A DNA stretch of 64,000 bases from an uncultured Actinomycetota bacterium (GTDB lineage Bacteria; Actinomycetota; Actinomycetes; S36-B12). Both the position numbers and the translations under genes were made by a program. Location: assembly GCA_963749905.1 (NCBI GenBank), contig CAVVOF010000006.1, positions 208,162 to 272,161 of the forward strand, given 5' to 3'. Below, piece after piece: positions 3,563-33,491 of the stretch. A model generated the notes under the pieces. It searched no databases and was not told the DNA's origin. It was given only the letters and a program-made list of their open reading frames with translations. The first letter of the stretch is position 1, and each line of letters starts with the position of its first letter.

Positions 3563-3592
3563 CGCCTCACCCTACTCAACGCACCGGCGTGG

Positions 3593-3660
3593 CCCCGTCG
3601 AGCGTGGAGCTCAGGCGCCCTGTCCCGGCGGGTCGCGCCTGAGCGCCACGCTCGACGGGG
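3593..3660. repeat. Type-A palindromic hairpin repeat, copy 1
   Basis: Left arm ccccgtcgagcgtggagctcaggcgc (3593-3618), 16-nt loop, right arm gcgcctgagcgccacgctcgacgggg (3635-3660). One arm mismatch. Intergenic, between the DksA-like stop and the lspA start. Confidence 0.85.
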
Positions 3661-3670
3661 TGACGGACTG

Positions 3671-4509
3671 CTAGTAGCGCTCCTCCGCCTGCTTGCAGGC
3701 CAGGCACAGCGTTGCCCGCGGGAACGCCTGCAGCCGGTACTTGCCGATCGGCCGTCCGCAGGACTCGCAGATCCCGTACGTGCCCTCCTCGATGCGCTGC
3801 AGCGCGTGCTGGACCTGCTCCATCATGTCCCGCGCGTTGTTCGCCAGGGACATCTCGTGCTCGCGCTCGAAGGTCTTGCTGCCGGCATCGGCCTGGTCGT
3901 CGCCGGCGCCGTCGCCGGAATCCCGGATGAGGTCGGCCAGGCCCTCCTCCGCGGCGGAGACCTCCTCCTGGAGGCGGATCAGGTCCGCGTTGAGCTCGGC
4001 TCGGACGGCCGCGCGCTCCTTGGCCGTCCACGGTGACTCGTCCTCGCGCACCGCCAACCGAGGCCGGGGCGCGGCAACCCGCTTGATCGTCGCCTTCTTC
4101 GCCGGCGCAGCCTTCTTCGCCGGCGCAGCCTTCTTGACCGGTGCGGCCTTCTTCGCGGCGCAGCCTTCTTCGCCGGCGCGGCCTTCTTCACGGGAGCCTT
4201 CTTGACCGGTGCGGCCTTCTTCGCCGGCGCGGCCTTCTTCGCGGGCGCGGCCTTCTTCGCGGGCGCGGCCTTCTTCGCGGGCGCGGCCTTCTTCGCGGGC
4301 GCGGCCTTCTTCGCGGGCGCGGCCTTCTTCGCCGGCGCAGCCTTCTTCGCCGGCGCGGCCTTCTTCACCGGAGCCTTCTTCGCGGGAGCCTTCTTGACCG
4401 GCGCAGCCTTCTTCGCCGGAGCGGCCTTCTTCACCGGAGCCTTCTTCGCGGGTGCGGGCTTCTTCGCCGGAGCTGCCTTCTTGGCCGCCGGCCGAGCAGA
4501 CCTCGCCAT
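3671..4509 (-). CDS. Histone-H1-like (AAPAKK repeat) N-terminus fused to a DksA/TraR C4 zinc-finger domain (Streptomyces DdbA-like); reading frame broken by a 1-nt deletion near 4156
   Basis: ORF 3979..4509 begins MARSARPAAKKAAPAKK and carries the repeats. ORF 3671..4675 ends with KKAAPAKKATIKR, FEREHEMSLANNARDMMEQVQHALQRIEEGTYGICESCGRPIGKYRLQAFPRATLCLACKQ. The two frames join where cttcgccggcg has become cttcgcggcg (4151-4160). Confidence 0.8.
4090..4490 (-). repeat. In-frame 18-nt tandem repeat encoding (A/P)AKKAA units
   Basis: About 20 units. Five identical consecutive 18-mers gcggccttcttcgcgggc occupy 4229-4318, flanked by near-identical variants. Confidence 0.85.
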
Positions 4510-4656
4510 GAGTTCCCCTGTTCCTCGTGGACCCTCCGGTCCCGAATGCGGAATGTCCGCAGCAGGCTAGGCCCATGCCGCCCCGAGCCCGGGGAGCCGC
4601 GCCGATATCCTGACCATTCGCGTGATCGACGCACCCCGAACCCTGATGGAGGACGC

Positions 4657-7797
<3,141 letters not shown>

Positions 7798-7812
7798 CCT
7801 GACGGGCGTCGA

Positions 7813-8277
7813 CTACTCGGCGTCGATCAGCCGACGCTGGTCGTCGAGCATCGCGCGCACCGACGCCCGGATGGCGTCCGCCCGAGCCTGCGCGTACCGG
7901 ACGATCTCGTCGGCCGTGCGCTGGGCGAGCGCGAGCACCGCCTCGGCATCGGGGTTCTCCGACACCTGGGCGATCAGCTCTGCCGGGATCACCGGCTCGG
8001 TAGCGGCTACCGCGACCGCGCCCCGGGTGGCGGTGGCCAGCTGCTCCTGCAGCTCGGCCATCCGCTGCTCGGCGCCGACCAGGCGGGCCTGCAACTGGTC
8101 GCACTGCGTGCGCAGGACCGCCTCGCCGTCACGGGACCGCTGGAGTTCGTCGGCGTACTGCGCCACATCCGCCTCGAGGATGTCGAGGAACGCGTCGACC
8201 TCGTCCATGTCGTAGCCCGCGCGCATGCGCGTCGTCCCGAACTGCATGGCACGCACCTCGGCGGCGGTGATGGGCAT
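7813..8277 (-). CDS. divIVA: DivIVA/Wag31-family cell-pole protein
   Basis: MPITAAEVRAMQFGTTRMRAGYDMDEVDAFLD is the typical DivIVA N-terminus, followed by coiled coil. ATG at 8277 is preceded by ggagga. It is the last gene of the dcw-ylm cluster. Confidence 0.88.
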   Translation of the reverse strand: MPITAAEVRAMQFGTTRMRAGYDMDEVDAFLDILEADVAQYADELQRSRDGEAVLRTQCDQLQARLVGAEQRMAELQEQLATATRGAVAVAATEPVIPAELIAQVSENPDAEAVLALAQRTADEIVRYAQARADAIRASVRAMLDDQRRLIDAE

Positions 8278-8305
8278 CGGTCCTCCCGGACGTCGGATCG
8301 TGCGA

Positions 8306-8602
8306 TCAGGTGGTGGCCGCCAGCGTACGAGCAATCCCCATCAGGATGTTCGTGCCGATGAACAGGATGAGGAAGGCGAGGTCCAGCTGCACCTGGCCGA
8401 GTCGCAGGGGCGGGACGACGCGGCGGATCCACCGCAGGGGCGGGTCGGTCACCGTGTAGATCAGCTCGAGCACGATGAGGAGCGGACCCCGCGGACGCCA
8501 GTCCCGGGCGAAGGCCTGCACGAGGTCGAACACCAGGCGCGCCAGCAGCAGGATCCAGAAGACGAACAGCAGCGCAGCTATCGCCTCGAAGACGAGTGAC
8601 AT
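8306..8602 (-). CDS. YggT-family membrane protein
   Basis: 98 aa with two to three TM segments. It holds the conserved position between sepF and divIVA. Confidence 0.85.
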   Translation of the reverse strand: MSLVFEAIAALLFVFWILLLARLVFDLVQAFARDWRPRGPLLIVLELIYTVTDPPLRWIRRVVPPLRLGQVQLDLAFLILFIGTNILMGIARTLAATT

Positions 8603-8671
8603 GTACGCGTTCTCCCCTGCGGTGCTCTGCTCGGTTGGTTGCTCGACGCCCGGCCGCGGCCGACGGGTCGA

Positions 8672-9262
8672 TCAGCTCTGGTTGAAGAAGCCATCCTTGG
8701 CGATCTGGGCCCGGGCCTCGTCGCCCACGTCGACGTTGACCGGCGAGAGCAGGAACACCTTGTTGGTGATGCGCTCGATGGACCCGCGCAGCCCGAAGAC
8801 CAGGCCGGCGGCGAAGTCGATGATGCGCTTGGCATCCGCGTCCTCGAGTTCGGACAGGTTCATGATCACCGGCACGCCCTCGCGGTACTGCTCGCCGATG
8901 CGACGGGCATCGTTGTAGCTGCGCGGATGGATCGTCTCGATCCTCGACAGGTCGGGAGCCGGCGCGTACGTCGGGCGGCGGTCGGCTAGCGGAGCGGCGG
9001 TGGGACGCGACGGCGGGGCGGCATCCGCTCGGAAGGTGCGCACGGCCCGGGTATCCGGGATCGGCTTCACGCTTCGACTGGTGTAGCGGTCGTCGTACTC
9101 CGGCTCGTAGCCCTGCTCATAGCCGCGGCCCGCGGATCCGCGACTGTCGCGCGAGGAACTGCGCCGTGGCGCGTCGTACTCATCGAAGTCGTCGTAGGCC
9201 TCGTCACCGTGGTCCTCGACGAGACCCAGGTACACGGCCATCTTGCGCATCGCGCCAGCCAT
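8672..9262 (-). CDS. sepF: Cell division protein SepF
   Basis: [18 protein letters not shown]-terminus and the C-terminal domain [49 protein letters not shown]. Confidence 0.92.
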
Positions 9263-9315
9263 GCCATCCTCCCTGTACGACGCATGCGGCGAGACCGCAT
9301 GTGATTGTGTTGACG

Positions 9316-10041
9316 TTACTGCACGTACGTCCGGTCGCCGAGTATCGCTCCCCCGATGCGCACCTGTGTCGCGCCCTCGGCGATGGCCTCCTCGAGGTCG
9401 CCGCTCATCCCCGCGGAGATCACGTCCGCACCCGGATGTTCTCGTCTCAAGGAGTCAGCGACCGCCCGCAGGCGGGCGAACGCGGCCCGTGGCCCACCCG
9501 GAGCAGGCGGATAGGGCGCGACTCCCATCACGCCCCGGAGCCGTAGCGACGACTGGCCCGCGACGATTTCGGCCAACGCCGGCACGTCGTCCGGCGAGGA
9601 CCCGCCGCGATCGGGACGCGGATCGGGATCCAGGTCGACCTGGAGCAGCACGTCGAGCACTCGCTCCCGGCCGGTCGCGGCGCGGGCGAGGGCCAGTGCG
9701 AGCTCGGGACGATCCACGGACTCGACGATGTCTGCCCATCGGACGACCGACGCGGCCTTGTTGCGCTGCAGCTGGCCGATCATGTGCCACCGCAGCCGCT
9801 CGCCGCCGGCGGCGCAGGCCAGCCGCTTGGCGCGTGCCTCCTGGTCACGGTTCTCGCCGACGTCGCCGACCCCTAGGCCGGCCAGGATGTCCACGTCGGT
9901 CGCGGGGAAGGTCTTCGTCACCACGACGAGGGTCACCCCGTCGGCACGGCCGGCCGCCCGTCGGGCGCCCTCGATCCGGGCCGACACCTGCGCCAGTCCC
10001 GCGGCGATCTGCGCCGTTCGTTCGTCGACGTGCTCGGTCAC
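9316..10041 (-). CDS. YggS/YlmE-family PLP-binding protein
   Basis: GTG at 10041 inside ORF 9316..10308. Motifs [28 protein letters not shown] and [10 protein letters not shown]. Confidence 0.88.
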
Positions 10042-10796
10042 GAAGCCATCCTCGCGATGACGATGCCCTGACGCCCGGTGAGCCGGTCCCGCCGGTATGA
10101 GAACAGGCCGGGATCCTCGGCCGTGCAGCCTGCTGCGACGAGGACAGCGTCGGAAGGGACGCCCGCCTCGGCCAGGCGGGCGATCACGCCACGCGAGACG
10201 TCGATGCCCGGCTGGCCGTCGGCGCACGACACGACGGCCGTCCGAGCCACAGCCGGCGAGCAGCGCGCCTCGATCTCCCTTGCGCGCTCGGGCGGCACCG
10301 GGTAGCACTGCCCGCAGATGGCGCCCCCGAGAACGGCATGGTCCACCCCGCTGCCCTGGTCCGACATCGCCGCGACCAGCGCCCCGACCACGTCCGCGGC
10401 CAGCCCGCGCCAGCCGCAGTGCGCGACACCCACGGTCGCGCCGTCGGACCCGACGAGCGCCAACGGGACGCAGTCCGCACCGAGCGCAGCCAGCGCGAGT
10501 CCGGGCGTGCGCGTCACCAGGGCATCCACGCCGGCGACCACTCCGGGCCGGTCGACGAGGGCGACGTCGGCGCCGTGGACGGCGTCCATCACCGCCAGTC
10601 CAGCGGCGGCCACCCAGCCGGACGCGACGGCCCGGTTGTGCGCGACCGCCTCGTCGTCATCGCCCACGTAGCCGGCGAGGTTCAGTGATGCGTACGACGC
10701 CTGGCTGCTTCCGCCCCAACGACCAGTGGCCGCCCATCGTGCCGGGCGGCCACCAGTGCTGCGGGGGTCGAGGACCCCAGCGGCGATCGAGAACAT
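10038..10796 (-). CDS. pgeF: YlmD/PgeF laccase-domain (purine nucleoside phosphorylase-like) protein
   Basis: C-terminal 252 aa of ORF 10038..11975, from MFSIAAG. Motifs SLNLAGYVGDD, ADCVPL, HCGWRG and the C-terminal FSYRRD. Confidence 0.85.
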   Translation of the reverse strand: MFSIAAGVLDPRSTGGRPARWAATGRWGGSSQASYASLNLAGYVGDDDEAVAHNRAVASGWVAAAGLAVMDAVHGADVALVDRPGVVAGVDALVTRTPGLALAALGADCVPLALVGSDGATVGVAHCGWRGLAADVVGALVAAMSDQGSGVDHAVLGGAICGQCYPVPPERAREIEARCSPAVARTAVVSCADGQPGIDVSRGVIARLAEAGVPSDAVLVAAGCTAEDPGLFSYRRDRLTGRQGIVIARMAS

Positions 10797-10813
10797 CGCG
10801 TCGATCCGCCGCC

Positions 10814-11929
10814 TTACTTGAGGAAGTCGGGGATGTCGAGATCGTCGTCCGAGTCGTCGAACACGATGGTCCGCGGCTGGGACAGGCTCCGCGCCCCCGG
10901 CGCCACGACAGCCGGGACCTCGCCGGTGTCGCCACCGTCGCGCAGGCGGGCGGTCTGCCCGCCGCTCTTCTTCGCCGGCGGCTCCCCGCCGTCGAACCCC
11001 GCGGCGATGACGGTGACGCGCACCTCGTCTCCGAGGGTGTCGTCGATGACCGCGCCGAAGATGATGTTGGCGTCCGGATGGGCCGCGTCGGCCACGAGGC
11101 GCGCGGCCTCGTTGATCTCGAAGAGCCCGAGGTCGCTGCCGCCGGAGATGGACAGCAGCACGCCGTGCGCACCGTCGATACCGGCCTCCAGCAGTGGGCT
11201 GGAGATCGCCTTCTCGGCCGCCTCGACCGCACGGTCCTCGCCCCGCGCGGACCCGATGCCCATCAGGGCAGAGCCGGCGGAGTGCATGACGCTCTTCACG
11301 TCGGCGAAGTCGAGGTTGATCAGGCCGGGAGTGGTGATCAGGTCGGTGATGCCCGAGACGCCCTGGAGCAGCACGTGATCGGCCTGCCGGAACGCGTCGA
11401 TGACGCTGATGTTCCGATCGGCAAGCGAGAGCAGTCGATCGTTCGGGATGACGATGAGAGTGTCGACCTCGGCGCGCAGCGCGTCGACGCCGGCCTCGGC
11501 CTGCGCCTGCCGGCGACGGCCCTCGAAGCCGAACGGCCGGGTCACCACGCCGATGGTGAGCGCGCCGAGGGACCGGGCCACCCGAGCCACGACGGGTGCG
11601 CCGCCGGTGCCGGTGCCGCCACCCTCGCCCGCGGTGACGAAGACCATGTCGGCCCCCTTGAGGACCTCCTCGATCTCCTCCATGTGGTCCTCGGCCGCCT
11701 TGCGGCCGACCTCGGGGTTGGCGCCTGCGCCGAGGCCCCGCGTCAGTTCGCGGCCGATGTCGAGCTTCACGTCGGCGTCGCTCATGAGCAGCGCCTGCGC
11801 GTCGGTGTTGATGGCGATGAACTCGACGCCCTTCAGGCCGACCTCGATCATGCGGTTGACCGCATTCACGCCACCGCCGCCGATGCCGACGACCTTGATC
11901 ACTGCCAGGTAGTTCTGCGGAGCCGCCAC
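10814..11929 (-). CDS. ftsZ: Cell division GTPase FtsZ
   Basis: [37 protein letters not shown] and the C-terminal [10 protein letters not shown]. Confidence 0.98.
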
Positions 11930-12110
11930 GGCTGCCCGTCCTTTCCTCCGGTGCCGCCGGGACTCCTCCCGGCAACGTCTGCGACCAGACCCTTAACCTC
12001 TACTTGAGGCTAAGATTTCGACCCGGCCTTGGCCGGCGGGAGGTTAGGCCTTTTCTTCCCTGTTGCGCAAGGTGAGGGTGGGACCAAAGTCTCAACTACT
12101 ACTTGAGACC

Positions 12111-12182
12111 GATCCCGTCGAGCGTGGAGCTGAGGCGCGAAACGCCGAAGGCGAGCGCCTCAGCTCCACGCTCGACGGGATC
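12111..12182. repeat. Type-A palindromic hairpin repeat, copy 2 (perfect 28-nt arms)
   Basis: gatcccgtcgagcgtggagctgaggcgc (12111-12138), 16-nt loop gaaacgccgaaggcga, gcgcctcagctccacgctcgacgggatc (12155-12182). It ends 2 nt from the ftsQ stop codon. Confidence 0.88.
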
Positions 12183-12184
12183 GG

Positions 12185-12965
12185 TCAGCGGGATCGGAAC
12201 GTGGTCGGCATCTCGGGTGCCGACACGTCGTACAGGTCGGCGCGGCGCCGGCTGTCCAGCAGCACCCGGAGCACCTCCGCCTTGAACTCGGGCTGCTCCG
12301 CACTCCCCCAGCGCACCTGGTCCCCCGACCGCAGGCGCAGCAGGACGTCATCGCGAGTGGTCGCCTCCGCCGACACCACTCGGCGGGACAGGTCGGCGGG
12401 CAGGCTGTCCAGCACCGCCATCGTCTCCGCCAGCGCCGCCCCGGACGCCGTGACCCGGGGCAGGCCCTTGGGCAGGGCGCCGAGCGGCTCGAACACCACG
12501 CCCTCCGCATCGACGGCCCGACGCACCGCCGGTGCCACCGCTGCGCCGGCGAACGACGAGCCGGCGGTCGACGGGGCACCGGTGGAGATCACGATGGCCA
12601 CCGGCACGCGTTCCGTGACTGCGACGACGATCTCCGACGGCCAGCCGCGCCGCACCTCGACACTCGACACCCACGGCAGCTCGCGGACGGACTCCTCGGC
12701 GCGCTGCGTGTCGATGCGGGCCAGCGGCTGGCCCAGCGGCACCGCAGCAGCGGCCAGCACCGCGTCGGCGCGGGCACCCTCGATGCCGACGACGCGGACG
12801 TCCTGCGCAGCCAGCAGCGACGAGAACCAGACGGCCCACACCGCTGCGGCGACCAGGGCGGCCACCAGCAGCACGAGCCAGCACGCGGATCAGCCTGCGG
12901 TACGAGCGGCGGGGCGCGGCGAGCGCGCGAGCGGGGGCCGGGCGGTCGACGGTCGGCGCGCTCAT
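12185..12965 (-). CDS. ftsQ: Cell division protein FtsQ (POTRA); apparent frameshift near 12877
   Basis: The N-terminus [13 protein letters not shown]...YRRLIRVLA sits in one frame (ATG 12965, ATGA overlap with the murC stop). The TM and POTRA body VLLVAALVAAAVWAVWFSS...VRVVGIEGA sits in ORF 12185..12874. Confidence 0.85.
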
Positions 12966-14397: not shown

Positions 14398-15467
14398 CTT
14401 CCACCTCCGGTAGCTGCCTCGATGACGACGCGCGCCATCTGCTCATCGGCATCCCGCACTCCGTGGCGGCTGGCCGCCGCCCCCATGGCGGAGAGCCTGT
14501 CGCCATCGTGCAGGACGGAGGCGCTCGTTCGTGTGAGCCACTCCGCGGTCAGGTCGGCATCGTCGATGATCAGTCCGCCGCCGGCCCGCACGACCGGCAG
14601 GGCGTTGAGCCGCTGCTCGCCGTTGCCGATGGGCAGCGGCACGTAGATCGCGGGCAGGCCGACGGCCGCGAGCTCGGCGCAGGTCATGGCACCGGCCCTG
14701 GTCACCGCGAGGTCGGCGGCCGCGTACGCGAGGTCCATCCGGTCGATGAACGGGACCGGGACGTACCCGGGCGACGCCGCCGGGACCTCGTTGCGGGCGC
14801 CGAAGGCATGCAGGATCTCGATGCCGTCCGTCTCGAGCGCGACGCGGGACGCCGCCACCACCTCGTTCAGCCGCTGGGCGCCCTGGGACCCGCCGAAGAC
14901 CAGCAGCACCGGTGCAGCGGGATCCAGCCCGAAGAACTCCCGGGCCTGGTCACGAGTCCCGCCGCGGTCCAGGGTCGCGATGGCATGTCGCAGCGGCAGT
15001 GCCATCCGACGTGCCCCGCGGAGCACCTGCGGATCCGTCGCGTAGACGTGCGGCGTGAAGCGGGCGGCCAGCTTGTTCGCCAGCCCCGCCCGGGCGTTCG
15101 CCTCATGGACGACGAGCGGCGTACGCGTGCGGCGGGCAGCCAGGTAGGCGGGCACCGCCGCGTAGCCGCCGAAGCCCACCACGACGTCGGCCCGCCGGCT
15201 CTGGATCACGTCCGCGGCCTGGGCCACCGCGCGGCGCAGACGCGGTCCGAGCCGGAGCAGATCGGCTCCCGGTCGCCGGGGCATCGGCACCGCGGGCACC
15301 GTGACCAGGTCGTAGCCCCGGGCCGGCACGAGCGTGGTCTCCAATCCGCGGTCGCTGCCGATGACCGTGATCGTCACGTCCGGGTCCTGACGCCTCAGGG
15401 CGTCACCGACGTTGAGGGCGGGCTCGATATGGCCACCCGTGCCGCCCGCAGCGAGGATGACGTGCAC
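14394..15467 (-). CDS. murG: Lipid II glycosyltransferase MurG
   Basis: VHVILAAGGTGGHIEPAL follows GTG at 15467, directly after the ftsW stop. Also LVFGGSQGA and TRAGAMTCAELAAVGLPAIYVPLP. Confidence 0.93.
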   Translation of the reverse strand: MHVILAAGGTGGHIEPALNVGDALRRQDPDVTITVIGSDRGLETTLVPARGYDLVTVPAVPMPRRPGADLLRLGPRLRRAVAQAADVIQSRRADVVVGFGGYAAVPAYLAARRTRTPLVVHEANARAGLANKLAARFTPHVYATDPQVLRGARRMALPLRHAIATLDRGGTRDQAREFFGLDPAAPVLLVFGGSQGAQRLNEVVAASRVALETDGIEILHAFGARNEVPAASPGYVPVPFIDRMDLAYAAADLAVTRAGAMTCAELAAVGLPAIYVPLPIGNGEQRLNALPVVRAGGGLIIDDADLTAEWLTRTSASVLHDGDRLSAMGAAASRHGVRDADEQMARVVIEAATGGGR

Positions 15468-15468
15468 C

Positions 15469-22161: not shown

Positions 22162-22163
22162 CG

Positions 22164-23987: not shown

Positions 23988-23988
23988 C

Positions 23989-24819: not shown

Positions 24820-25766
24820 GCCGCGCTCCGGGTGCGCTCGGCGGCCCGCACGCGCACGGAGGCGGCTCGGGGGTTCGCGGCGATCTCGTCGTCGTCGGCC
24901 AGCTCGGCGCCGCGGGTCAGCAGCCGCAACCACGGCTGGAGCGACTCGGGCACCACGGGCAGGCCCGCCGGCACGTCCGGGTGCGCCCCGACCGCGAGTG
25001 CGCGCTTGACGATGCGGTCCTCGAGCGACTGGTAGGACATCACGACGATGCGGCCACCGACGGCCAGCGCGTCGATGGCAGCGGGGATGGCCCGGCGCAG
25101 CGCGTCGAGTTCACCGTTGACCTCGATGCGCAGGGCCTGGAAGGTGCGCTTGGCCGGGTTGCCGCCGGTGCGCCGAGCGGCCGCCGGGATCGCGGCGCGG
25201 ACCAGGTCCACCAGGCGGGCGGAGGTGGTGATGGGCGCCACGTTGCGCTCGACGACGATCCGCGCCGCGATTCGGCCGGCGAACTTCTCCTCGCCGTACT
25301 GCCGCAGCACCCGGGCGAGGTCCGCGGCGCTGTAGGTGTTGACGACGTCTGCGGCGGTGATGCCCGTCGTCGGGTCCATCCGCATGTCGAGGGGTGCGTC
25401 CTGGGAGTACGCGAAGCCGCGCTCGGCCTCGTCGAGCTGCATCGAGGAGACCCCGAGGTCGAACAGGATGCCCTGGATCTCGCGGTAGCCGAGGTCCGCG
25501 AGCACGTCGGGCAGTTCGTCGTAGACGGCGTGCACGAGGGTGACCCGCTCGCCGAAACCCGCCAGCCGCTCGCCGGACAGGCGCAAGGCTTCGGGGTCGC
25601 GGTCCAGGCCGACCAGCCGCAGGTCGGGGAAGTCCGTCAGCGCCTGCTCCGCGTGACCGCCCAGCCCGAGGGTGGCGTCGACCAGCACGGCTCCGGGCGA
25701 CTCCAGCGCCGGAGCGAGCAGGGCGATCACCCGGTCCCGCAGGACGGGGACGTGGCGGGCAGGCAT
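24816..25766 (-). CDS. rsmH: 16S rRNA m4C1402 methyltransferase RsmH (MraW)
   Basis: [40 protein letters not shown]. The longer ORF start at 26096 adds only Arg/Pro-rich sequence. Confidence 0.93.
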
Positions 25767-25774
25767 GGTCACGG

Positions 25775-25906
25775 TCACGCCCAGATATCCACGACCGAGG
25801 CGAGGGCGACGAGCGCGCCCACGGTGAGCGCGAGCGCGGCAGCGAGGACGCCTGTCGTGCGCAGCAGGCTGCGGACGGGCTGTCCGGGTTGGGTCAGGCT
25901 GGTCAT
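25775..25906 (-). CDS. Candidate 43-aa single-TM small protein between mraZ and rsmH
   Basis: Below the ORF-track size cutoff. It reads [49 protein letters not shown]. 38 of 43 codons end in G/C. The SD-like aagggggagag sits directly upstream, and the stop is 8 nt before the rsmH ATG. Confidence 0.35.
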
Positions 25907-25939
25907 CTCTCCCCCTTCTGGTCAGAAGGTCGCGGTCGG

Positions 25940-25979
25940 GATCGGTGCGGTGGTGCGGTGATCGGTGCGGTGGTCGGTC
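25940..25979. repeat. Imperfect 20-nt tandem duplication in the mraZ-rsmH spacer
   Basis: gatcggtgcggtggtgcggt followed by gatcggtgcggtggtcggtc. Confidence 0.7.
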
Positions 25980-26108
25980 GGGTGTGGTGGCTGCTGGTTC
26001 CGTGTGGCCAGGTCCCCGCCCGCTGTTTCCAGCGAGCCCCTGGCACGGGGGAAGTCGTGTCAGGAGCGAGGTGCGAGGAGCGGGAGGAGACCTCACCGCA
26101 CGGCGCCG

Positions 26109-26546
26109 TCAGATGCCCGGGAGCACCTCCTCACTGAGGCCGGAGAAGGCCTCCTCCTGCTCGGCCAGGTAGCTGGCCCAGGTCTCGGCATCCCAGATCT
26201 CGGCGGTCGGTCCCTTGCCCACGACCACGACCTCGCGGTCCAGGCCGGCGTACTCGCGCAACTGCGCGGGCACCGTGATGCGGCCCTGCTTGTCGGGAAT
26301 CTCGTCGGAGGCTCCGGAGAAGAGCACCCGGGCGTAGGCCTGGATCCGAGGGCTGGACTTCGAGGTCTCGTTGAGCTGGGCCGCGTAGTCGGCGAACTCC
26401 TGCGCCGGCCAGACCACGATGGCGCGGTCCTGGCCCTTGGTCAGCACCAGGCCGCCGGCCAGCGCCTCACGGAACTTGGCGGGCAGGACCAGCCGGCCCT
26501 TGTCGTCGAGGCGAGGCGTGTGCGTGCCCAGGAATCCTAGGAACAT
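26109..26546 (-). CDS. mraZ: Transcriptional regulator MraZ
   Basis: [26 protein letters not shown] and a second SpoVT/AbrB-like half, [13 protein letters not shown]. Confidence 0.93.
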
Positions 26547-26600
26547 CCACCTCACCTCCCCCTCTAGCCCCGGCTACACCCCTGGCACCTCCAGGTGTCG

Positions 26601-26634
26601 CCACTGTACTCCACTTTCCTCCACCGTCAACCAC
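26601..26634 (-). promoter_or_regulatory. Predicted MraZ operator: four GTGG boxes with exact 10-bp phasing
   Basis: ccac occurs at 26601, 26611, 26621 and 26631 on the plus strand. On the coding strand this reads GTGGTTGACG GTGGAGGAAA GTGGAGTACA GTGG. The boxes lie 55-88 nt upstream of the mraZ start. Confidence 0.55.
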
Positions 26635-26674
26635 ATTCCCCCCATGTCTGCCCGCGTCCCCCTCCACTCCCCTC

Positions 26675-26746
26675 CCCCGTCCGTCTTGAGGTTGGTGGTC
26701 GGATTTCGGGCAGCAGGCGACCACCAACCTCAAGACGGACGAGGGG
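26675..26746. repeat. Type-B palindromic hairpin repeat, copy 1
   Basis: Left arm cccccgtccgtcttgaggttggtggtcg, 16-nt loop gatttcgggcagcagg (26702-26717), right arm cgaccaccaacctcaagacggacgagggg. It begins 15 nt downstream of the sigma-gene stop. Confidence 0.82.
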
Positions 26747-26760
26747 TGGGGCGGATGGGG

Positions 26761-27537
26761 CTAGGAATCGAGGCGCGCGCGCAGCCGCGCGGCCACCTCC
26801 GGCGAGACGACGGTGTCCGGATCGCGGAGGGCGCCGGCACAGGCATGGACCCCGACCAGCGCGGACACAAGGGGCGGGCAGGTGGGGCAGGCGGACAGGT
26901 GCCGCTCGAGGACGACGGCCGTGTCGGCGTCCACCTCCCCGTCGAGGTAGTCCGACACCCGGCTGCGCGCATCCCAGCAACGCAGCGGCACCCCGCGCAG
27001 CGCCACCCGGCGCTCATGCCCGTCCGCCAGCGCGCTGACCAGCATCATCCGGCCCCGGCGCAGGCGCTGCTTGGCGGCCGGCAGGTCGACGTCTGTCAGC
27101 TCCGCGGCCTCGCGCACCGTCAGGCCCTCGACATCGTGCAGCACGACGGCCGCGCGGTAGATGACCGGCAGCCGTACCAGGGCGTCCTCGAGCTCCTCGC
27201 GGGTCTCTGCGGCGGCCACGACGGCGGCGGCGTCGACCGAGTACTCATCCGACATCCAGCGTTCCTCGACCTCGTCGACGAGGATCTCGCGGTCCTTCCG
27301 CGAGCGGTCGATGGCGAGGTTGGTGATCACCCGCCGCAGCCACGCGTCCATGTCCCGGATGTCGGCGAGCTGCTCCCGCCGCTCGAACGCGCGCAGGATG
27401 GCCTCCTGGACGATGTCCTCCGCGGCGTGGCTGTCGCGGGTGAGGGAGCGGGCGTACGGCAGCAGGCGCGCGCCGCGCGCCGCGAGAAAAGCACCGGCCG
27501 ACTCCCCATCGGGAGCCGGCCAGGGCGAATCAGTCAC
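26761..27537 (-). CDS. ECF sigma-70 factor fused to a C-terminal zinc-binding anti-sigma (ZAS, HxxxCxxC) domain
   Basis: GTG 27537. Region 2 reads EDIVQEAILRAF...WLRRVITNLAIDRSRK. Region 4 reads LPVIYRAAVVLHDVEGLTVREAAELTDVDLPAAKQRLRRGR. Then comes DYLDGEVDADTAVVLERHLSACPTCPP, with no stop in between. Confidence 0.8.
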   Translation of the reverse strand: MTDSPWPAPDGESAGAFLAARGARLLPYARSLTRDSHAAEDIVQEAILRAFERREQLADIRDMDAWLRRVITNLAIDRSRKDREILVDEVEERWMSDEYSVDAAAVVAAAETREELEDALVRLPVIYRAAVVLHDVEGLTVREAAELTDVDLPAAKQRLRRGRMMLVSALADGHERRVALRGVPLRCWDARSRVSDYLDGEVDADTAVVLERHLSACPTCPPLVSALVGVHACAGALRDPDTVVSPEVAARLRARLDS

Positions 27538-27560
27538 GCGCTCATTGTGCCGTCGGTGGA

Positions 27561-27767
27561 TCAGGCGCGGCTCTTCGCGGTGGAGATGCCGAACACGCGG
27601 TAGAGGGGGCAGAACCCGGTGGCCGCGGTGATCAGCATGATGGCGGCGACCGCGAGGAGCACCCAGCCCAGCACCGAGCCGAAGCCCACTGCCCAGGCGC
27701 CCAGGACCGCGGCGATCGCGATGATGACGCGAATCACTCGATCGATGCCGTTCTCGTTGGTGGTCAT
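27561..27767 (-). CDS. DUF2892 (YgaP-like) small membrane protein
   Basis: ATG 27767 is preceded by aaggag. Sequence MTTNENGIDRVIRVIIAIAAVLG...TGFCPLYRVFGIST. Confidence 0.7.
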   Translation of the reverse strand: MTTNENGIDRVIRVIIAIAAVLGAWAVGFGSVLGWVLLAVAAIMLITAATGFCPLYRVFGISTAKSRA

Positions 27768-27854
27768 TGCCGACTCCTTCGCTGTTCGTGACCATCCCGG
27801 TGATGGCCCGTCATAGAGGAAGACGCACGAACCGGCCAAAGGGATACCGGATCT

Positions 27855-27925
27855 CCCCCGTCTGTCTTGAGGTTGGCGGTCGCCTTTGGCCCGGTTTCCG
27901 ACCGCCAACCTCAAGACAGACGGGG
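27855..27925. repeat. Type-B palindromic hairpin repeat, copy 2
   Basis: Left arm cccccgtctgtcttgaggttggcggtcg, 16-nt loop cctttggcccggtttc (27883-27898), right arm cgaccgccaacctcaagacagacgggg. It lies in the divergent spacer between the DUF2892 and DUF3048 genes. Confidence 0.82.
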
Positions 27926-27938
27926 AAGGGCGCGCGGC

Positions 27939-29162
27939 GTGTCCGGAGCATCGGTGCCGCCCACGTACGCTTCAGCGGTGATCCGGGTCGGGCGTGTCGT
28001 CGTCGTGGCGGCCGCCCTGCTGTCCGGCACCGCCCTCGCCGCCTGCACGACCACCCCCACGGCCACGCCGACGCCGACCCGCGGCGGCAGCCAGGGCACG
28101 GCCTCGACCAGCCCATCCGCAGCCCCGACGCCATCCGCGACGCCCACCCCCTCCCCCACGCCGACCTTCACCGTCACCGATCCCGCGACCCCGCAGCCGA
28201 CGTGGTGGTCGCCGCTCACCGGCCGGCCGGGCGACGGGCCGGAGCCGGTACTCGTCGTCAAGCTCGACAACACCACGTATGCGCAGCCGCACGCCGGCCT
28301 GACCAAGGCGGACGTGGTCTACGTCGAGGAGGTCGAGTACGGCATCACCCGCATCGCCGCCGTGTTCTCGAGTCGGGTGCCGACGCGCATCGGCCCGGTG
28401 CGGTCGGCGCGCATCACCGATGTCGACCTGCTCGCGCAATACGACAAGCCCGCCTTCGCCTACTCGGGCGCGCAGCGCAAGATGTACGCCGCCCTGGACG
28501 CCGCGCCGTTCCGGGACGTGTCGCCGAGGCGCGGGGCGGCGGGCTACTCGCGCGACTACAACCGCCGGGCCCCGTACAACTACTTCCTCGACGGCCGCGT
28601 CGCACTCGACCGCGCGCCGAAGGCCAGCCTCGCGACGGACATCGGCTTCACGTTCGACGAGGAGGTGCCGACCGGTGGACGGGTGGCCACGAAGGCCACC
28701 ATGCGCTGGGGCTACTCCTCCGCGGAATTCGACTACAGCCGCAAGCTCGGCGCGTACAAGGTCGGCCTCAACGGCGTCCGGGCCGGCGCCGAGGAGCGGG
28801 AGTCCGGCCAGCTGGCCGACACCGTCGTCCTCCAGTACGTGAGGCAGACGCCGTCGAAGTACTTCGACAAGGGCGGTGGCAACACCCCGCACGCCGAGAC
28901 CATCGGCGCTGGCAAGGCGTGGGTCCTGCGGGACGGGCTGGCCTGGAAGGTCGACTGGAATCGCCCAACGGCCGAGTCAGGCACCACGTTCACCCTGCCG
29001 GACGGCACGCCCCTGCCGTTCAAGCCCGGGCAGACCTGGGTCGTCCTCCTCGACAAGGACCGCAAGGCGACCGTCACCCCGTTGACGCAGCCGAAGCCTG
29101 CGCCGAGTCCCTCGCTCACCAGCAGCCCGGCACCCAGCAGCTCACCCACCAGCAGCTCCTGA
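27939..29162 (+). CDS. DUF3048-family lipoprotein
   Basis: The lipobox SGTALAAC is followed by a Thr/Pro-rich linker and PLTGRPGDGPEPVLVVKLDN...GITRIAAVF...RSARITDVDLL. The start could also be GTG 27978. Confidence 0.8.
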   Translation: MSGASVPPTYASAVIRVGRVVVVAAALLSGTALAACTTTPTATPTPTRGGSQGTASTSPSAAPTPSATPTPSPTPTFTVTDPATPQPTWWSPLTGRPGDGPEPVLVVKLDNTTYAQPHAGLTKADVVYVEEVEYGITRIAAVFSSRVPTRIGPVRSARITDVDLLAQYDKPAFAYSGAQRKMYAALDAAPFRDVSPRRGAAGYSRDYNRRAPYNYFLDGRVALDRAPKASLATDIGFTFDEEVPTGGRVATKATMRWGYSSAEFDYSRKLGAYKVGLNGVRAGAEERESGQLADTVVLQYVRQTPSKYFDKGGGNTPHAETIGAGKAWVLRDGLAWKVDWNRPTAESGTTFTLPDGTPLPFKPGQTWVVLLDKDRKATVTPLTQPKPAPSPSLTSSPAPSSSPTSSS

Positions 29163-29170
29163 GCACGGCA

Positions 29171-29199
29171 GAGCGCCCGCACACCGGGTGCGGGCGCTC
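29171..29199. terminator. Bidirectional stem-loop between convergent genes
   Basis: Perfect 12-bp stem gagcgcccgcac / gtgcgggcgctc with a 5-nt loop. It lies between the DUF3048 stop (29162) and the DUF2202 stop (29215). Confidence 0.6.
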
Positions 29200-29214
29200 C
29201 GAAGTCATCGGTGG

Positions 29215-29913
29215 CTACTGCAGGCAGCTGCCGTCCTGCAGTCCGGTGCCGGTCCCCGACTGCGTGCCCGCGCCCATGCCGCGGCCCTGCATGCCCGAGC
29301 CCATGCCGCGGCCCTGCATGCCCCGCCCGGCGGCGTTCTGACGGCCCATCCCGTTCTGGGCACCCGTGGCCGTGTCGCCCGAGGCCAGCCGGGTGAAGGC
29401 AGCCAGGTGCTTCTCCGAGCCGTTCTTCAGGGCCGTGAGCACCCGGGTCACGTCGGCTGCCGGCGAATCCGCGAGCGCATCCTCCAGATCGGCGATGTCG
29501 AGCTTCTCGATCGTGATGCCCACCTGGGCGGCCGCTGAAAGGGAGGCCTTGCCCTGCGCTACGAGATCGTTGTACAGCTTCTGCCACGTGGCATCGTCGA
29601 AGTAGCCGTATGCGTCGCCCGCGGTCGGGTCGGTGACGTCGTTGTTCGCCATGACCGTGCGCACGGCGTCGAGGTGCCGCTGCTCGGACGCGGCGATGCG
29701 GTCGAACTGGTTCACGTCGTAGAGATCGCCCAGCGCGGTGTAGACGTCGCGGGCCAGCTTCTCCTCAGTCGCCATGGACTGGAGCATGCTGGCGGTGTCG
29801 GCCGGTACGGCCGCCGATGCCGGACCGGCGAGGACGATGGCGCCGGGCACCGCGACGGCGAGCGCGGCTCCGATGCCGATGAGGCTGCGGGTGGCGGTGC
29901 GGGTGGCGTTCAT
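29215..29913 (-). CDS. Secreted DUF2202 (ferritin-like) protein with a Met/Gly-rich C-terminal tail
   Basis: Signal peptide ending PASAAV. Motifs EEKLARDVY, SEQRHLDAV, EKLDIADLE and GSEKHLAAF. The tail reads GRGMQGRGMGSGMQGRGMGAG. Confidence 0.7.
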   Translation of the reverse strand: MNATRTATRSLIGIGAALAVAVPGAIVLAGPASAAVPADTASMLQSMATEEKLARDVYTALGDLYDVNQFDRIAASEQRHLDAVRTVMANNDVTDPTAGDAYGYFDDATWQKLYNDLVAQGKASLSAAAQVGITIEKLDIADLEDALADSPAADVTRVLTALKNGSEKHLAAFTRLASGDTATGAQNGMGRQNAAGRGMQGRGMGSGMQGRGMGAGTQSGTGTGLQDGSCLQ

Positions 29914-30057
29914 GGTGTCCTCCTGGTCGTGGGTGGCGCTTCGTTGCGCACACCCCTGTTATCCACCCCGCATGTTGTGCCGCGGTCCGACGACCGTGAA
30001 GGACATGTAAATGCGCACCCGGTTGCGCGCCGCGAGCGCCCGATCGGGACCTTCGGC

Positions 30058-31191
30058 CTACTCCCGCAGGGCCAAAGGATCCGAGGAGCGCAGTTCGAGG
30101 TCGATCTCCGCAGGCGGCTCCAGGGGCCGACTGGCGGCCACCCCGAGATCGCTGAGTCGACGGGCCTGGCGCAGTGCCTGCCGGTCGAAGGAGCCGACGA
30201 ACGCGTTGTAGCCGCGCACCGCCTGGTCGAGTCCGCGCCTGAGGACCTCGAGATGCTCCACGAGCACGCCGAGTCGGGCCAGCATCTCAGCGCCGGCGGC
30301 GCGGACCTGCTCGGCGTTCTCGGCCATGAGCTGGCGCTGGTAGCCGAAGGACACCGTGCGCAGGAGCGCGAGCATCGTGGTGGGGGTCGCCAGCACGACG
30401 CGCCTCTCGAATGCCTTCTCCAGCAGCAGTCCGTCGACCTCGATGGCGCTGGACAGCAGGGATTCCAGGGGCAGGAACATCACCACGAAGTCCGGACTCG
30501 CGGCGCTGTCCGAGTAGCGCTTGGCCGACAGTTCGCGCACCCGGGCGGCCGTGTCCGTCGCGTGCTTGGCCAGCAGCGCCCGACGCTGTTCCGGATCGTC
30601 GGCGGCCATCGCCTGCCAGTAGGCGTCGAAGGGGAACTTCGCGTCGACGAGGATCTCCCCGCTCCCCGGCAGCATCACCACGATGTCTGGGCGGCTTGCC
30701 CCGTTCTCCCCCGCCCGCGTCTGCTGGCGGGCGAAGTGCGTGCCTTCGAGGAGGCCGGCGTGCTCGAGCAGCCGCTCGAGCTGCATCTCGCCCCACTGAC
30801 CGCGCGTCTGCCCCTTGGCCAGTGCCCCGGCGATGGTCGAGGTCGCCTCCTCGAGGGAGGCGTAGCGCTCGCGGAACGAGGACAGCTCGGTCGTGATGGC
30901 CGACTCCGCCGCGGCGCGCTCCCGACCGGCCTGCTCCGCCGTCCGACGCAGGCCGTCGAGGCTGTCCTGCACGCCTCGCAGCACGTCGTCGACCGCCTGC
31001 GCCGAGACCTGCTGCGCACGAAGCGCGTCGTTGTCCGAGCGCAGCGTCGCCACTGCACCCTCCGCACGCACCGCCCGGTCTCGTTCGCGGCGGGTGGCCC
31101 GGCCCACGACGACGACGGCGAGCACCCCGCCGATAGCGACGCCGATGACCACGCCGACGACCATGCCGATGACCAGACCTGATGCATCCAT
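30058..31191 (-). CDS. rmuC: DNA recombination protein RmuC
   Basis: N-terminal TM, long coiled coil, then GQWGEMQLERLLE...PDIVVMLP...ILVDAKFP...DFVVMFLP. Confidence 0.88.
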   Translation of the reverse strand: MDASGLVIGMVVGVVIGVAIGGVLAVVVVGRATRRERDRAVRAEGAVATLRSDNDALRAQQVSAQAVDDVLRGVQDSLDGLRRTAEQAGRERAAAESAITTELSSFRERYASLEEATSTIAGALAKGQTRGQWGEMQLERLLEHAGLLEGTHFARQQTRAGENGASRPDIVVMLPGSGEILVDAKFPFDAYWQAMAADDPEQRRALLAKHATDTAARVRELSAKRYSDSAASPDFVVMFLPLESLLSSAIEVDGLLLEKAFERRVVLATPTTMLALLRTVSFGYQRQLMAENAEQVRAAGAEMLARLGVLVEHLEVLRRGLDQAVRGYNAFVGSFDRQALRQARRLSDLGVAASRPLEPPAEIDLELRSSDPLALRE

Positions 31192-31340
31192 GGTCGCGAG
31201 CCTGCCCGGTCCGTCTGACATTGCGCGGATTCGGCACGCGGACACGCATCGCTGAGGGCCGCATGGCAGACTCGATTGCCCACTTGCCGGGCGTGGCCTC
31301 GACCGCGCCCGGCTGCCGACGAAGCGGAAGGGAAGGGTGC

Positions 31341-33425
31341 GTGGACGCGCTCACGGAGGAGCAGGCCTTCGTCGACCTCGCCTACGCGCATCTGGCCAGG
31401 TACACCGAGCACCTCGACCGGCGGATGGACGCGGTCCGGCACTCCCCCTCCACCGGGACCAACCAAGACCTGCTGGAGAAGCAGGCGCTGTTCGACTCGC
31501 TGGCCCAGCAGCGAGCCAGTGCCGAGGCCGCCGAGCGACGCCTGTGCTTCGGCCGCACCGACGCGCTCGACGGCCAGGTCCAGCACATCGGCCGGATCGG
31601 CCTGCGCGACGACGACGGCGATCCGATCCTGCTCGACTGGCGGGCCCCGACCGCCGCGGGCTTCTACCAGGCCACGTCGGTCGAGCCGATGGGGCTGGCC
31701 GGCCGACGCCGCATCCTCACCCGGGAGCGGCGGGTCACCCACCTCGAGGACGAGGACCTGTCCGACCCCTCGTCGGTCGCCACTGACGCCGCCGCCCGCT
31801 CGGTCGAGGCGCCTCGCGACGGTCGCATGGCCGACATCGTCGCGACGATCGCTGCGGATCAGGATCGGATCGTCCGCAGCCCGCTCGCGCAGGTCACCGT
31901 CGTGCAGGGCGGTCCCGGCACCGGGAAGACCGTCGTGGCGCTGCATCGGGCCGCCTGGCTGCTGTACACGCACCGCGAGCGGCTGTCCCGCGACGGCGTG
32001 CTGGTCGTCGGTCCGTCGCGCGCCTTCCTGCGGTACATCGACCAGGTGCTGCCCAGCCTCGGTGAGACCGACGTCGTCCTGCTGACGCCCGGTCAGCTCT
32101 ACCCGCCGGTGTCCACGGAGCTCCCCGAGCGACCCGATGCGGCCGCCGTCAAGGGCGACCTCGTCATGGCACGAGTCATCGCCAACGCCGTGCACCAGCT
32201 CATCCGCGTGCCCGAGCGCGACGTGACCATCGAGCTCAGCGACGGCACGTCCGTCACGGTCACCGCCCGCCAGCTGGACCAGGCCCGACGCAGCGTGGCC
32301 CGCAACGGCACCTTCCACGCCAACCGCGATCCCTTCCTGATCCGCGTCCTCGCCTACCTGTGCCAGGACCGGGCGCACCGCCGGGGCGACGATCCGGACG
32401 ATCCCGACGTCCGGGCCCAGCTGCTGTCCGACCTGGTGGACGAGCCCGCGGTGCGCCGGACCCTCAACCTGATGTGGCTGCCGACCACCCCCGAACGGGT
32501 CGTCGACCGACTGCTGTCCGACGCGCAGGCGCTGGCCGCGGCGGCCGGCGGACTGCTGACCCCCGACCAGCAGCGCACCCTGCTGCGCCCTGCCGGCTCG
32601 CCGTGGACTGTCGACGACGTGCCGCTGCTCGACGAGGCCGCCGACCGGCTCGGCGAGTACGTTCCCCGCACCCGGACTGCCGAGCGCGACGAGCACGGGT
32701 ACGCGGAGCTGTCCGTCGTCGACCCGATGGCGAGGAACCGGCCGACGTCGACGGTCGCCGAGCGGGCGCTCGCCGACCGCGAGTGGGTGTACGGCCACGT
32801 CATCGTGGACGAGGCGCAGGAGCTGTCCCGGATGGCTTGGCGGGCGCTGTCCCGTCGCTGCACGCGCCGCTCGATGACGGTGGTGGGCGACCTCCAGCAG
32901 ACGACTCATCCGGCCGGTGCCCGCACGTGGGACGAGGCACTCGACTGGGCCGGGTCCAAGCGGGAGCTGCACACGCTCACGGTGACCTACCGGATCACCC
33001 GCGAGACCGCGGCGACGGCGACCGAGCTGCTGACGGCCGCCGGCGGCCATGCGCCCAACCTCCACCCGATCCGGGACGGCGAGGCCACCGAGTGGCTCGA
33101 GGTCGCGCTCGATGACCTGATCGAGCTGCTCGTCGAGCGCACCGCGGGACAGGCCGGCCGCACCGCCGTCGTGGTGCCGGACGACGAGCCCGACATCGTC
33201 GCGGCGCTGGTGGCGTCCGGGCCGCAGTTCGGCGCCGGGAGTGACGCGGTCGACGCCCCCGTCTCGGTGCTCGATGCGCGCAGCACCAAGGGCTTGGAGT
33301 TCGACCATGTCTACGTCGTCGATCCGCGGACGATGTCGCGTCAGGGCACGCGCGGGTCCGACATCTACGTGGCCTGCACGCGGGCGACGCAGCAACTGCA
33401 CGTCGTCCAGCTGACGACTCCCTGA
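31341..33425 (+). CDS. helD: HelD-like UvrD-family ATPase (RNA polymerase recycling motor family)
   Basis: GTG 31341 follows ggaagggaaggg; an alternative ATG lies at 31263. Walker A reads VQGGPGTGKT, Walker B/DExx reads HVIVDEAQE. Also VGDLQQT and KGLEFDHVYV. The N-terminal helical region fits the HelD N-domain and the length is about 700 aa. Confidence 0.78.
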   Translation: MDALTEEQAFVDLAYAHLARYTEHLDRRMDAVRHSPSTGTNQDLLEKQALFDSLAQQRASAEAAERRLCFGRTDALDGQVQHIGRIGLRDDDGDPILLDWRAPTAAGFYQATSVEPMGLAGRRRILTRERRVTHLEDEDLSDPSSVATDAAARSVEAPRDGRMADIVATIAADQDRIVRSPLAQVTVVQGGPGTGKTVVALHRAAWLLYTHRERLSRDGVLVVGPSRAFLRYIDQVLPSLGETDVVLLTPGQLYPPVSTELPERPDAAAVKGDLVMARVIANAVHQLIRVPERDVTIELSDGTSVTVTARQLDQARRSVARNGTFHANRDPFLIRVLAYLCQDRAHRRGDDPDDPDVRAQLLSDLVDEPAVRRTLNLMWLPTTPERVVDRLLSDAQALAAAAGGLLTPDQQRTLLRPAGSPWTVDDVPLLDEAADRLGEYVPRTRTAERDEHGYAELSVVDPMARNRPTSTVAERALADREWVYGHVIVDEAQELSRMAWRALSRRCTRRSMTVVGDLQQTTHPAGARTWDEALDWAGSKRELHTLTVTYRITRETAATATELLTAAGGHAPNLHPIRDGEATEWLEVALDDLIELLVERTAGQAGRTAVVVPDDEPDIVAALVASGPQFGAGSDAVDAPVSVLDARSTKGLEFDHVYVVDPRTMSRQGTRGSDIYVACTRATQQLHVVQLTTP

Positions 33426-33491
33426 CCCGTCGAGCGTGGCGATCAGGCGCGACTCGCCGACGCGGAGCGCCTGAACTCCACGCTCGACGGG
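33425..33491. repeat. Type-A palindromic hairpin repeat, copy 3 (degenerate centre)
   Basis: acccgtcgagcgtggcgatcaggcgc, 16-nt loop gactcgccgacgcgga, gcgcctgaactccacgctcgacggg. It starts at the helD-like stop codon. Confidence 0.78.

Follow-up and report, generated by a model that had tools for sequence, protein, structure and literature searches.

The repetitive extragenic palindromic (REP) unit is a 20-40-nucleotide (nt) imperfect palindrome that follows a conserved GT[A/G]G tetranucleotide; REPs occur tens to hundreds of times per genome and typically flank the gene of RAYT, a Y1 HUH transposase (PF01797). Intrinsic terminators consist of a hairpin followed within 0-2 nt by a 7-9-nt U-rich tract, and the integron attC site shows an R''/L''-L'/R' organisation with an integron integrase nearby. 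To our knowledge, classical terminators are largely missing from high-GC actinobacteria, and the way in which transcription units end in these bacteria is still debated. The main example so far of a repeated, sequence-conserved hairpin at gene ends is the Tuberculosis Rho-independent terminator (TRIT) motif, the function of which is disputed. The TRITs of Mycobacterium are conserved palindromes, present in 147 copies and mostly bidirectional, with a sharp positional peak at the stop codon (Gardner et al. 2011, PMC3152330). Here, we describe another family of dispersed gene-end palindromic repeats, found in a 64,000-nt stretch of an uncultured Actinomycetota bacterium (contig CAVVOF010000006.1 of assembly GCA_963749905.1, positions 208,162 to 272,161), which is called the window below. 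It is a previously undescribed family, not a new kind of system.

An inverted-repeat finder and a separate hairpin scan gave the same set of five long hairpins in the window (Table 1). All five are intergenic and lie within the first 34 kb of the 64 kb, and each has exactly 16 nt between two arms of 25-33 nt. The arms of elements 1, 2, and 5 (type A) read CCCGTCGAGCGTGGAGCT[C/G]AGGCGC, and those of elements 3 and 4 (type B) read CCCGTC[C/T]GTCTTGAGGTTGG[T/C]GGTCG. An earlier note on this DNA had claimed that all five begin with CCCGTC and end with GACGGG, have arms of 25-28 nt, and enclose a 16-nt loop. The loop length was borne out, the five loop sequences of the hairpin scan being those quoted there, and the right terminus holds for four of the five, element 3 ending in GACGAG with one mismatch; the arm lengths were given too short. 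The strand of element 1 was assigned from the apical motif GCGACCCGCCG, and the centre of element 2, GAAACGCCGAAGGCGA, can form a 4-bp mini-hairpin. Element 5 has the most degraded stem of the five, with 23 of 25 positions paired.

Table 1. Hairpin elements of the window and a neighbouring mini-hairpin, with positions counted from the first base of the window.
Feature	Type	Position	Strand	Arms	Core or remarks
Element 1	A	3588-3665	-	31 nt, 90% complementary	CCCGTC..GACGGG core 3594-3659 (66 nt), 16-nt centre
Element 2	A	12107-12186	+	32 nt, 100% complementary (perfect 32-bp stem)	core 12114-12179
Element 3	B	26669-26750	+	33 nt, 91% complementary	core 26676-26743 (68 nt)
Element 4	B	27853-27928	-	30 nt, 97% complementary	core 27857-27924 (68 nt)
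Element 5	A	33426-33491	+	25 nt, 92% complementary	66-nt core
Mini-hairpin CCCGTCGATCCTGCACAGCGCGACGGG		33503-33529	unset		11 nt past element 5, same termini

A degenerate two-arm pattern covering both types matched four times in the window, compared with 0.00 matches in 100 dinucleotide-preserving shuffles; the literal CCCGTC..GACGGG pattern matched one copy, its gap range leaving out the 66-nt type A copies. Folding energies between -55 and -79 kcal/mol are predicted for both strands, and the z-scores run from -7.4 to -14.9. A covariance model of the family run over the 64 kb recovered all five at 56-85 bits and no sixth copy, the next match reaching 17 bits; element 4 scored 84.9 bits on the minus strand and 73.1 bits on the plus strand. 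We give practically no weight to the explanation that the hairpins are a coincidence or an assembly artefact. Three matches in other assemblies (L009, L022, and L026) are indeed contig-end palindromes that look like assembly fold-backs, and ileS of the window is split over three frames, as assembly indel problems would cause. However, the five copies are internal to a 594-kb contig, they occur in two types and recur at internal positions of independent assemblies, and the shuffles gave zero matches; with the genome and metagenome scans and the covariance model, this explanation is effectively refuted.

Comparison with Known Repeat Systems

Compared by published description, the elements and the TRITs are both sequence-conserved palindromic hairpins repeated around an actinobacterial genome, with most copies two-way. 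Both occupy a narrow position at the stop codon, with the TRIT peak at -8 and the elements here at -14 to +17; neither has a canonical U-tract, and each is confined to one lineage. However, the TRITs are reported only from Mycobacterium, with 147 copies per genome, whereas the elements here are long, with a 25-32-bp stem and a ~16-nt centre, and have at least two arm subfamilies that possess a common foot and, in part, a common apical motif. Rfam lacks TRIT, and at its gathering thresholds no Rfam family matched the elements; the only mycobacterial match was Ms_IGR-8 at 22.6 bits, compared with a gathering threshold of 44. The E-value mode gave only generic long-hairpin microRNA-precursor models, at about half their thresholds. 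A search of the literature on actinobacterial REP/RAYT or similar repeats found nothing specific.

In the case of the REPs and REPINs of E. coli and Pseudomonas, the likeness lies in dispersed extragenic palindromes at gene 3' ends and between convergent genes, a conserved hairpin foot, stems with compensatory changes, and no target-site duplication. The two conserved arms around a less conserved centre recall the REPIN, and the roles proposed for REPs in the stability of mRNA 3' ends or in termination match the one that we infer here. In contrast to REPs, each element here is one 66-80-nt hairpin with a CCCGTC foot and without a GTAG-type head, its arms contain no internal REP-type palindrome, the copies are mostly single instead of forming clustered REP arrays (bacterial interspersed mosaic elements, BIMEs), and there is no RAYT gene in the window. 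The miniature inverted-repeat transposable elements (MITEs) of bacteria, such as Correia, Nezha, and RUP, are likewise short, non-coding, and intergenic, with terminal inverted repeats and empty orthologous sites. However, the elements here lack a target-site duplication, the plasmids, phages, viral contigs, and window searched yielded no insertion sequence with the same ends that could be their parent, and the whole element is a near-perfect hairpin instead of terminal repeats around an unrelated interior; at 66-80 nt, they are as short as the shortest MITEs or shorter.

Intrinsic terminators also place a GC-rich hairpin directly past the stop codon and serve two ways between convergent genes, but the stems here are 2-4 times longer than usual, lack the U-tract, and belong to a repeated family instead of having evolved individually. 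An integron attC site was considered and rejected: the ends are CCCGTC...GACGGG and not RYYYAAC...GTTRRRY, and no integrase domain was found in the window. The features that define the REP unit (size and GTAG head), the MITE (target-site duplication), and the terminator (U-tract) are therefore absent here, while REP-type extragenic placement at 3' ends and between convergent genes and the TRIT-type two-way hairpin at the stop codon are both present. The elements are a second family with TRIT placement rules, apparently independent of TRIT, in a different uncultured actinobacterial lineage.

Related Copies in Other Genomes

Copies outside the window were searched with two exact 14-nt ends spaced by 20-50 nt, which allows core lengths of 48-78 nt; the requirement for exact ends makes the resulting counts an undercount. 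The scanned collections are genomes and metagenomes other than the source genome, and none of the window's own copies is among the matches. In 185,579 species genomes, 10 loci matched, about 7 of them real hairpins with at most 3 per genome, and the same scan of the Joint Genome Institute (JGI) metagenomes gave 16 loci. The real hairpins comprise L005, L006, and L007 from one Actinomycetales metagenome-assembled genome (MAG), L008 from a Sporichthyaceae MAG, L004 from a Micromonosporaceae MAG, the type A-like L011, and also L010, L014, L019, and L020; a second L019 copy was found only by the hairpin scan and the covariance model. More distant variants occur in L013 (76 nt) and L003 (52 nt). 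The three contig-end palindromes were dropped, as were ten chance end matches without a hairpin (L001, L002, L012, L015-L018, and L023-L025). The core is 66-68 nt long in 15 of the 18 hairpin-type matches, so the architecture that the earlier note saw in both types is indeed shared and also recurs beyond the source genome. Related copies are rare in other actinobacterial MAGs and metagenomes and patchy across lineages.

Some of these loci contain further hairpins. In L019 (5840-6125), two family copies stand in tandem at 5889-5956 and 6053-6124 with ~45 nt of left flank in common, and the repeated unit of this lineage may, to judge from the shared flank, be longer than the hairpin. The second of the two, which was found independently of the end pattern, has the termini CCGCCG...CGGCGG, changed with compensation. 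L027 carries its own, different long perfect hairpin (15075-15140; 31-bp stem, 4-nt loop) in the divIVA/ileS spacer, and the Microbacteriaceae MAG of L003 contains a two-copy family of 58-62-nt hairpins at gene ends (4712-4769 and 6835-6896). Long gene-end hairpins may recur across actinobacterial lineages.

Architecture of the Hairpin

The covariation alignment consists of 16 sequences, with the structure given by RNAalifold. This structure is a 21-bp helix in which 13 of the 21 pairs show compensatory double changes. Paired cells make up 94.9% of the alignment, compared with 77% after shuffling and 30-44% in slid controls, and double changes occupy 59 cells, compared with 18.8 and 2-18, respectively; none of 500 shuffles reached the observed value of either. 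Against 349 Watson-Crick pairs, the stem mismatches are 9 GT, 5 AC, and 21 others, without a G.U bias. This is expected if both strands must fold, whether as a two-way RNA element or under a constraint at the DNA level. Selection on structure, as the earlier note had supposed, is thus supported by pairing that compensatory changes maintain. For selection on termini, the related copies give no fair gauge, having been picked by their termini. By the refuting condition set in the earlier note, the 16-nt loop fails as a family-wide constraint: the unpaired centre ranges from 3 to 18 nt while the total length is conserved, and in L005 and L006, with a 3-nt loop, the apex itself is paired.

The strict Watson-Crick complementarity would also suit a role of the DNA itself, in which the elements serve as protein-binding palindromes or cruciforms in chromosome organisation, or as an operator with the 14-bp ends as half-sites, and the conservation of the outer 14 bp points the same way. 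We consider such a role very improbable. Half-sites 38-40 bp apart with a self-complementary spacer are not operator-like, the placement at gene 3' ends speaks against transcriptional operators, and the conservation of the outer 14 nt among the scan matches is partly imposed by the search pattern.

The foot has the consensus CCCGTC[G/C/T][G/A][T/G]C[T/G]TG[A/G]; these outer 14 nt are similar between copies, though the scan pattern demanded those ends. The inner stem of ~11 bp is free in sequence and keeps its complementarity. Type A and type B arms are identical at 14 of 25 positions in an ungapped comparison, while arms of the same type are ~90% identical and their oriented loops have ~8-11 of 16 positions in common. 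The exact apical word GCGACACGCCG, which played no part in the search pattern, is found in L011 with type A arms, in L005 and L006 with type-B-like arms, and in L008 with a third arm type, and the three type A copies of the window all have one-mismatch variants of it, which agree in position and lie on one defined strand. The last 10 nt of the word, CGACACGCCG, are also found at the apex of an otherwise unrelated hairpin (L019 4286-4347), and 5 of the 7 exact occurrences of this 10-mer in the fetched loci are hairpin apices. In the window, the apical 11-mer with one mismatch allowed is not enriched (10 matches, compared with 13.6 expected), and only the exact 10-mer is informative. Contrary to the earlier note, the loop sequence is therefore not free; it contains an oriented motif and positions in common within each type.

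Since the apical motif lies outside the search pattern and occurs across type A, type-B-like, and third-type arms, our preferred reading of types A and B is that they are subfamilies which have diverged within a single family. The shared geometry would then be mostly inherited, through common descent and selection for pairing, instead of convergent. Judged from the aligned sequences, the element is a modular hairpin: the foot is conserved, the middle helix covaries, and the apex, with its oriented motif, evolves faster. This modular conservation hints at a specific binding partner, with nothing beyond the known repertoire. It is conceivable, but doubtful, that the two modules, the sequence-specific foot and the oriented GCGACACGCCG-like apex, are held at a fixed helical distance by the paired spacer and read by a dedicated actinobacterial protein. 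If so, one candidate for this reader is an enzyme other than RAYT that acts on hairpin DNA and moves the elements, and they would then constitute a new REP-like system; the alternative is a sequence-specific double-stranded RNA-binding factor for termination or 3'-end formation, as speculated for the TRITs.

Placement Relative to Genes

Four of the five window copies start 0-17 nt past a stop codon. Element 1 follows the DksA/TraR zinc-finger gene (3671-4675, minus strand) at a distance of 11 nt from its stop (3671-3673), and lspA (3002-3545, minus strand) lies downstream of the element. The outer arm of element 2 overlaps the stop codon of ftsQ (12185-12187), and the element precedes the leader of ftsZ, which lies at 11929. 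Element 3 is situated 10-17 nt after the stop (26761) of an extracytoplasmic function (ECF) sigma/anti-sigma gene, and a promoter-like site (26630-26603, minus strand) and mraZ (26109-26546) lie downstream of it. In the case of element 5, the first base comes right after the TGA (33423-33425) of a UvrD-like helicase gene (31182-33425, plus strand), and the next gene runs from 33558. The exception is element 4, which is situated in the divergent spacer between the sigma gene (probable start near 27537) and a DUF3048 lipoprotein gene (probable start 27978), about 50 nt ahead of the latter start.

In the relatives, every examined copy follows one or more stop codons, and five are located between convergent genes. 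The hairpins of L005, L006, L007, and L008 take up the whole spacer of two convergent genes except for 2-16 nt next to each stop, that of L014 overlaps both stops of its convergent genes, and those of L004 and L011 stand directly after a stop codon. The genes beside the copies, in the window and at the other loci, are unrelated housekeeping genes, with respect to which the apical motif takes either orientation. The arms contain TGA on both strands (within CTTGAGG and GCTGAGG). For annotation, the copies mark gene 3' ends.

Close to element 5, the mini-hairpin of Table 1 lies in a region (33500-33531) with direct repeats of both TGACCCGTCGA and GACGGGAG, in two copies each at a spacing of 77 nt. 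The mini-hairpin scored only 14.7 bits in the covariance model (E about 0.2), which leaves its family membership uncertain; from its sequence, it may be a truncated tandem copy, or a proto-site or original site.

Insertion History

The ftsQ-ftsZ site was compared with that of five relatives whose FtsQ is 65-73% identical (L027, L030, L031, L035, and L036), and none of them has the hairpin. The gap from the ftsQ stop to the leader is only 3-6 nt in these relatives, except for L027, which carries an unrelated ~50-nt segment there. Since the site is empty in five relatives and the rest of the spacer is conserved, element 2 is an insertion. The spacer between the dksA-like gene and lspA, which contains element 1, is 125 nt long here, compared with 21-31 nt in two relatives.

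The remainder of the ftsQ-ftsZ spacer, past element 2 (about 11930-12105, minus strand), is conserved near base for base in L027, L030, L031, L035, and L036. Its stems include a small hairpin, TCTCAAG-N-CTTGAGA with CTTT behind it, and several others, and this part of the spacer is a candidate structured ftsZ leader or promoter region.

Insertion raises the question of selfish DNA: non-autonomous elements of MITE or REPIN kind could be moved in trans by an enzyme encoded elsewhere, for example a HUH/Y1 transposase acting on hairpin DNA. The foot and the apical motif would then be recognition sites of the enzyme, the host would gain nothing, and the placement at gene ends would reflect tolerance. 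We regard this as possible but not probable. The empty orthologous ftsQ-ftsZ site in five relatives suits it, as do the random orientation relative to the adjacent gene, the one copy (element 4) in a promoter region, and the patchy distribution over lineages with low copy numbers elsewhere; the conserved foot and oriented apex around a free but paired middle could be the imprint of a hairpin-recognising protein. No direct repeats flank any of the five copies, the flanks being partly inverted and tending to extend the hairpin, and the filled and empty ftsQ-ftsZ sites show no duplication. The enzymes of IS200/IS605 elements and RAYTs work by single-strand peel-and-paste on hairpins and leave no target-site duplication, and a hairpin without such a duplication suits them.

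However, no trace of such a mover was found in the window, beside copies at other loci, or in the plasmid, phage, and viral collections. Pfam searches gave no transposase, RAYT, Y1, or integrase domain in the ~30 proteins of the window, where the gene calls leave gaps, and no transposase, RAYT, or integrase domain in 10 proteins beside copies at other loci, so the co-occurring RAYT or Y1-transposase gene that the earlier note had envisaged was found neither in the window nor beside copies elsewhere. BLAST of both types against plasmids and phages gave no match, nor did the pattern scan of viral contigs, so these collections hold no candidate parent among their insertion sequences, and the window holds none either. 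Neutral decay alone gives no compensation across lineages, though amplification from palindromic masters could. Finally, the fit to within a few nucleotides of the stops on both sides is tighter than tolerance alone suggests.

Proposed Function

We lean, with moderate confidence, towards the reading that the elements are lineage-restricted dispersed palindromic repeats of REP/TRIT kind that act as a two-way 3'-end hairpin. The strongest clue to the function is the placement. Each copy consists of a 66-68-nt core, in some cases extended to 80 nt, with the sequence-conserved foot, the free but paired inner stem of ~11 bp, and a variable apex of ~16 nt carrying the oriented motif, and copies have been inserted in either orientation between convergent genes and at or just past stop codons. 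With a stem that pairs strictly by Watson-Crick rules, transcripts of either strand would fold (-55 to -79 kcal/mol). The resulting hairpin would be a barrier to 3'-to-5' exonucleases, or else it would pause or insulate read-through, perhaps with the help of Rho or of another factor, and would not act as a classical U-tract terminator. The common RNA role that had been offered as one alternative in the earlier note is the best fit to the positions, and the RNA-level function of the hairpin is our deduction from them. A terminator scan of the window found canonical terminators at chance level and called none of the five elements; with such terminators no commoner than chance, structures of another kind at 3' ends are plausible.

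Several points weigh against this proposal. No U-tract was detected, with T making up 16% of the 10-nt tails on both strands compared with a background of 14%, and the classical intrinsic terminator is ruled out on this ground. Mycobacterial RNA polymerase requires a U-tract for termination in vitro (PMC3993855), and TRIT predictions overlap only 2-4% of the mapped 3' ends of M. tuberculosis (bioRxiv 10.1101/2022.06.01.494293). These two observations make direct or autonomous termination doubtful, and for the same reason a protective, pausing, or insulating role at the 3' end is favoured over it. In addition, element 4 is located in a divergent promoter region and not at a 3' end, and gene ends could merely be where insertions are tolerated. 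Perfect duplexes of 25-32 bp would also be RNase III substrates and could thereby destabilise transcripts instead of protecting them.

The last point can be extended to an explanation of its own, in which the elements are RNase III processing sites and cutting of the long perfect stem would detach adjoining cistrons, such as ftsQ and ftsZ, from each other or make them less stable. Duplexes from about 20 bp upwards are cleaved by RNase III, and perfect 25-32-bp stems stand directly after stop codons in the division/cell-wall (dcw) operon, where they are very likely transcribed. We judge processing sites to be decidedly unlikely, however, as the copies between convergent genes and the copy in the promoter region need no processing and the conservation of the foot sequence is left unexplained.

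As a second case beside the TRITs, with clear covariation and a clear polarity of filled and empty sites, the family suggests that such elements recur in the phylum, and it offers a clean comparative system in which gene-end hairpins can be viewed as host 3'-end devices, selfish DNA, or both.

Other Features of the Window

The window has a GC content of 70-74% over the 64 kb, in a lineage described as an actinobacterium of 71% GC, and covers the dcw cluster with mraZ, ftsQ, ftsZ, lspA, rluD, dnaE, and ileS. The ECF sigma/anti-sigma gene, the UvrD-like helicase gene, the DksA/TraR zinc-finger gene, and the DUF3048 lipoprotein gene are further members of its gene content. The nearest database relatives of its FtsQ are 71-73% identical and every one of them is environmental, which indicates an uncultured lineage.

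The ileS gene (4141-7797, plus strand) is broken over three overlapping frames, 4141-6123, 5579-6673, and 6520-7797, which suggests frameshifts from assembly indel errors or a pseudogene; ileS is also split on the contig of a relative (L030). The longest open reading frame of the DksA/TraR zinc-finger gene encodes 334 amino acids, with a long low-complexity EEG/KKAA stretch preceding the finger, and its start codon is uncertain. Besides the housekeeping dnaE at the window start (1-1986, minus strand), an imuB-like (IMS family) gene and a second DNA polymerase III alpha gene at 45724-50672 (minus strand) form a dnaE2-type mutagenesis cassette. The Rfam mraW RNA motif (RF01746) has a match at 25990-26109 (minus strand), in the spacer that separates mraZ from the next gene, with 41.6 bits (E = 1.3e-5) and thus below the gathering threshold of 50.

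Two further sites with hairpins or palindromes have no relation to the repeat family. An imperfect hairpin with a perfect GC-rich core of 10 bp and a 5-nt loop (29150-29220) is located at the convergent junction of the DUF3048 and DUF2202 genes and is unique. A large PAS-GGDEF-EAL gene (51739-55674) is directly preceded by two adjacent structures, a 20-bp hairpin with a 9-nt loop (51547-51595) and a perfect 22+22-nt palindrome, GCCTCAGACCTGTATTCGAACA / TGTTCGAATACAGGTCTGAGGC (51618-51669), which may be an operator.

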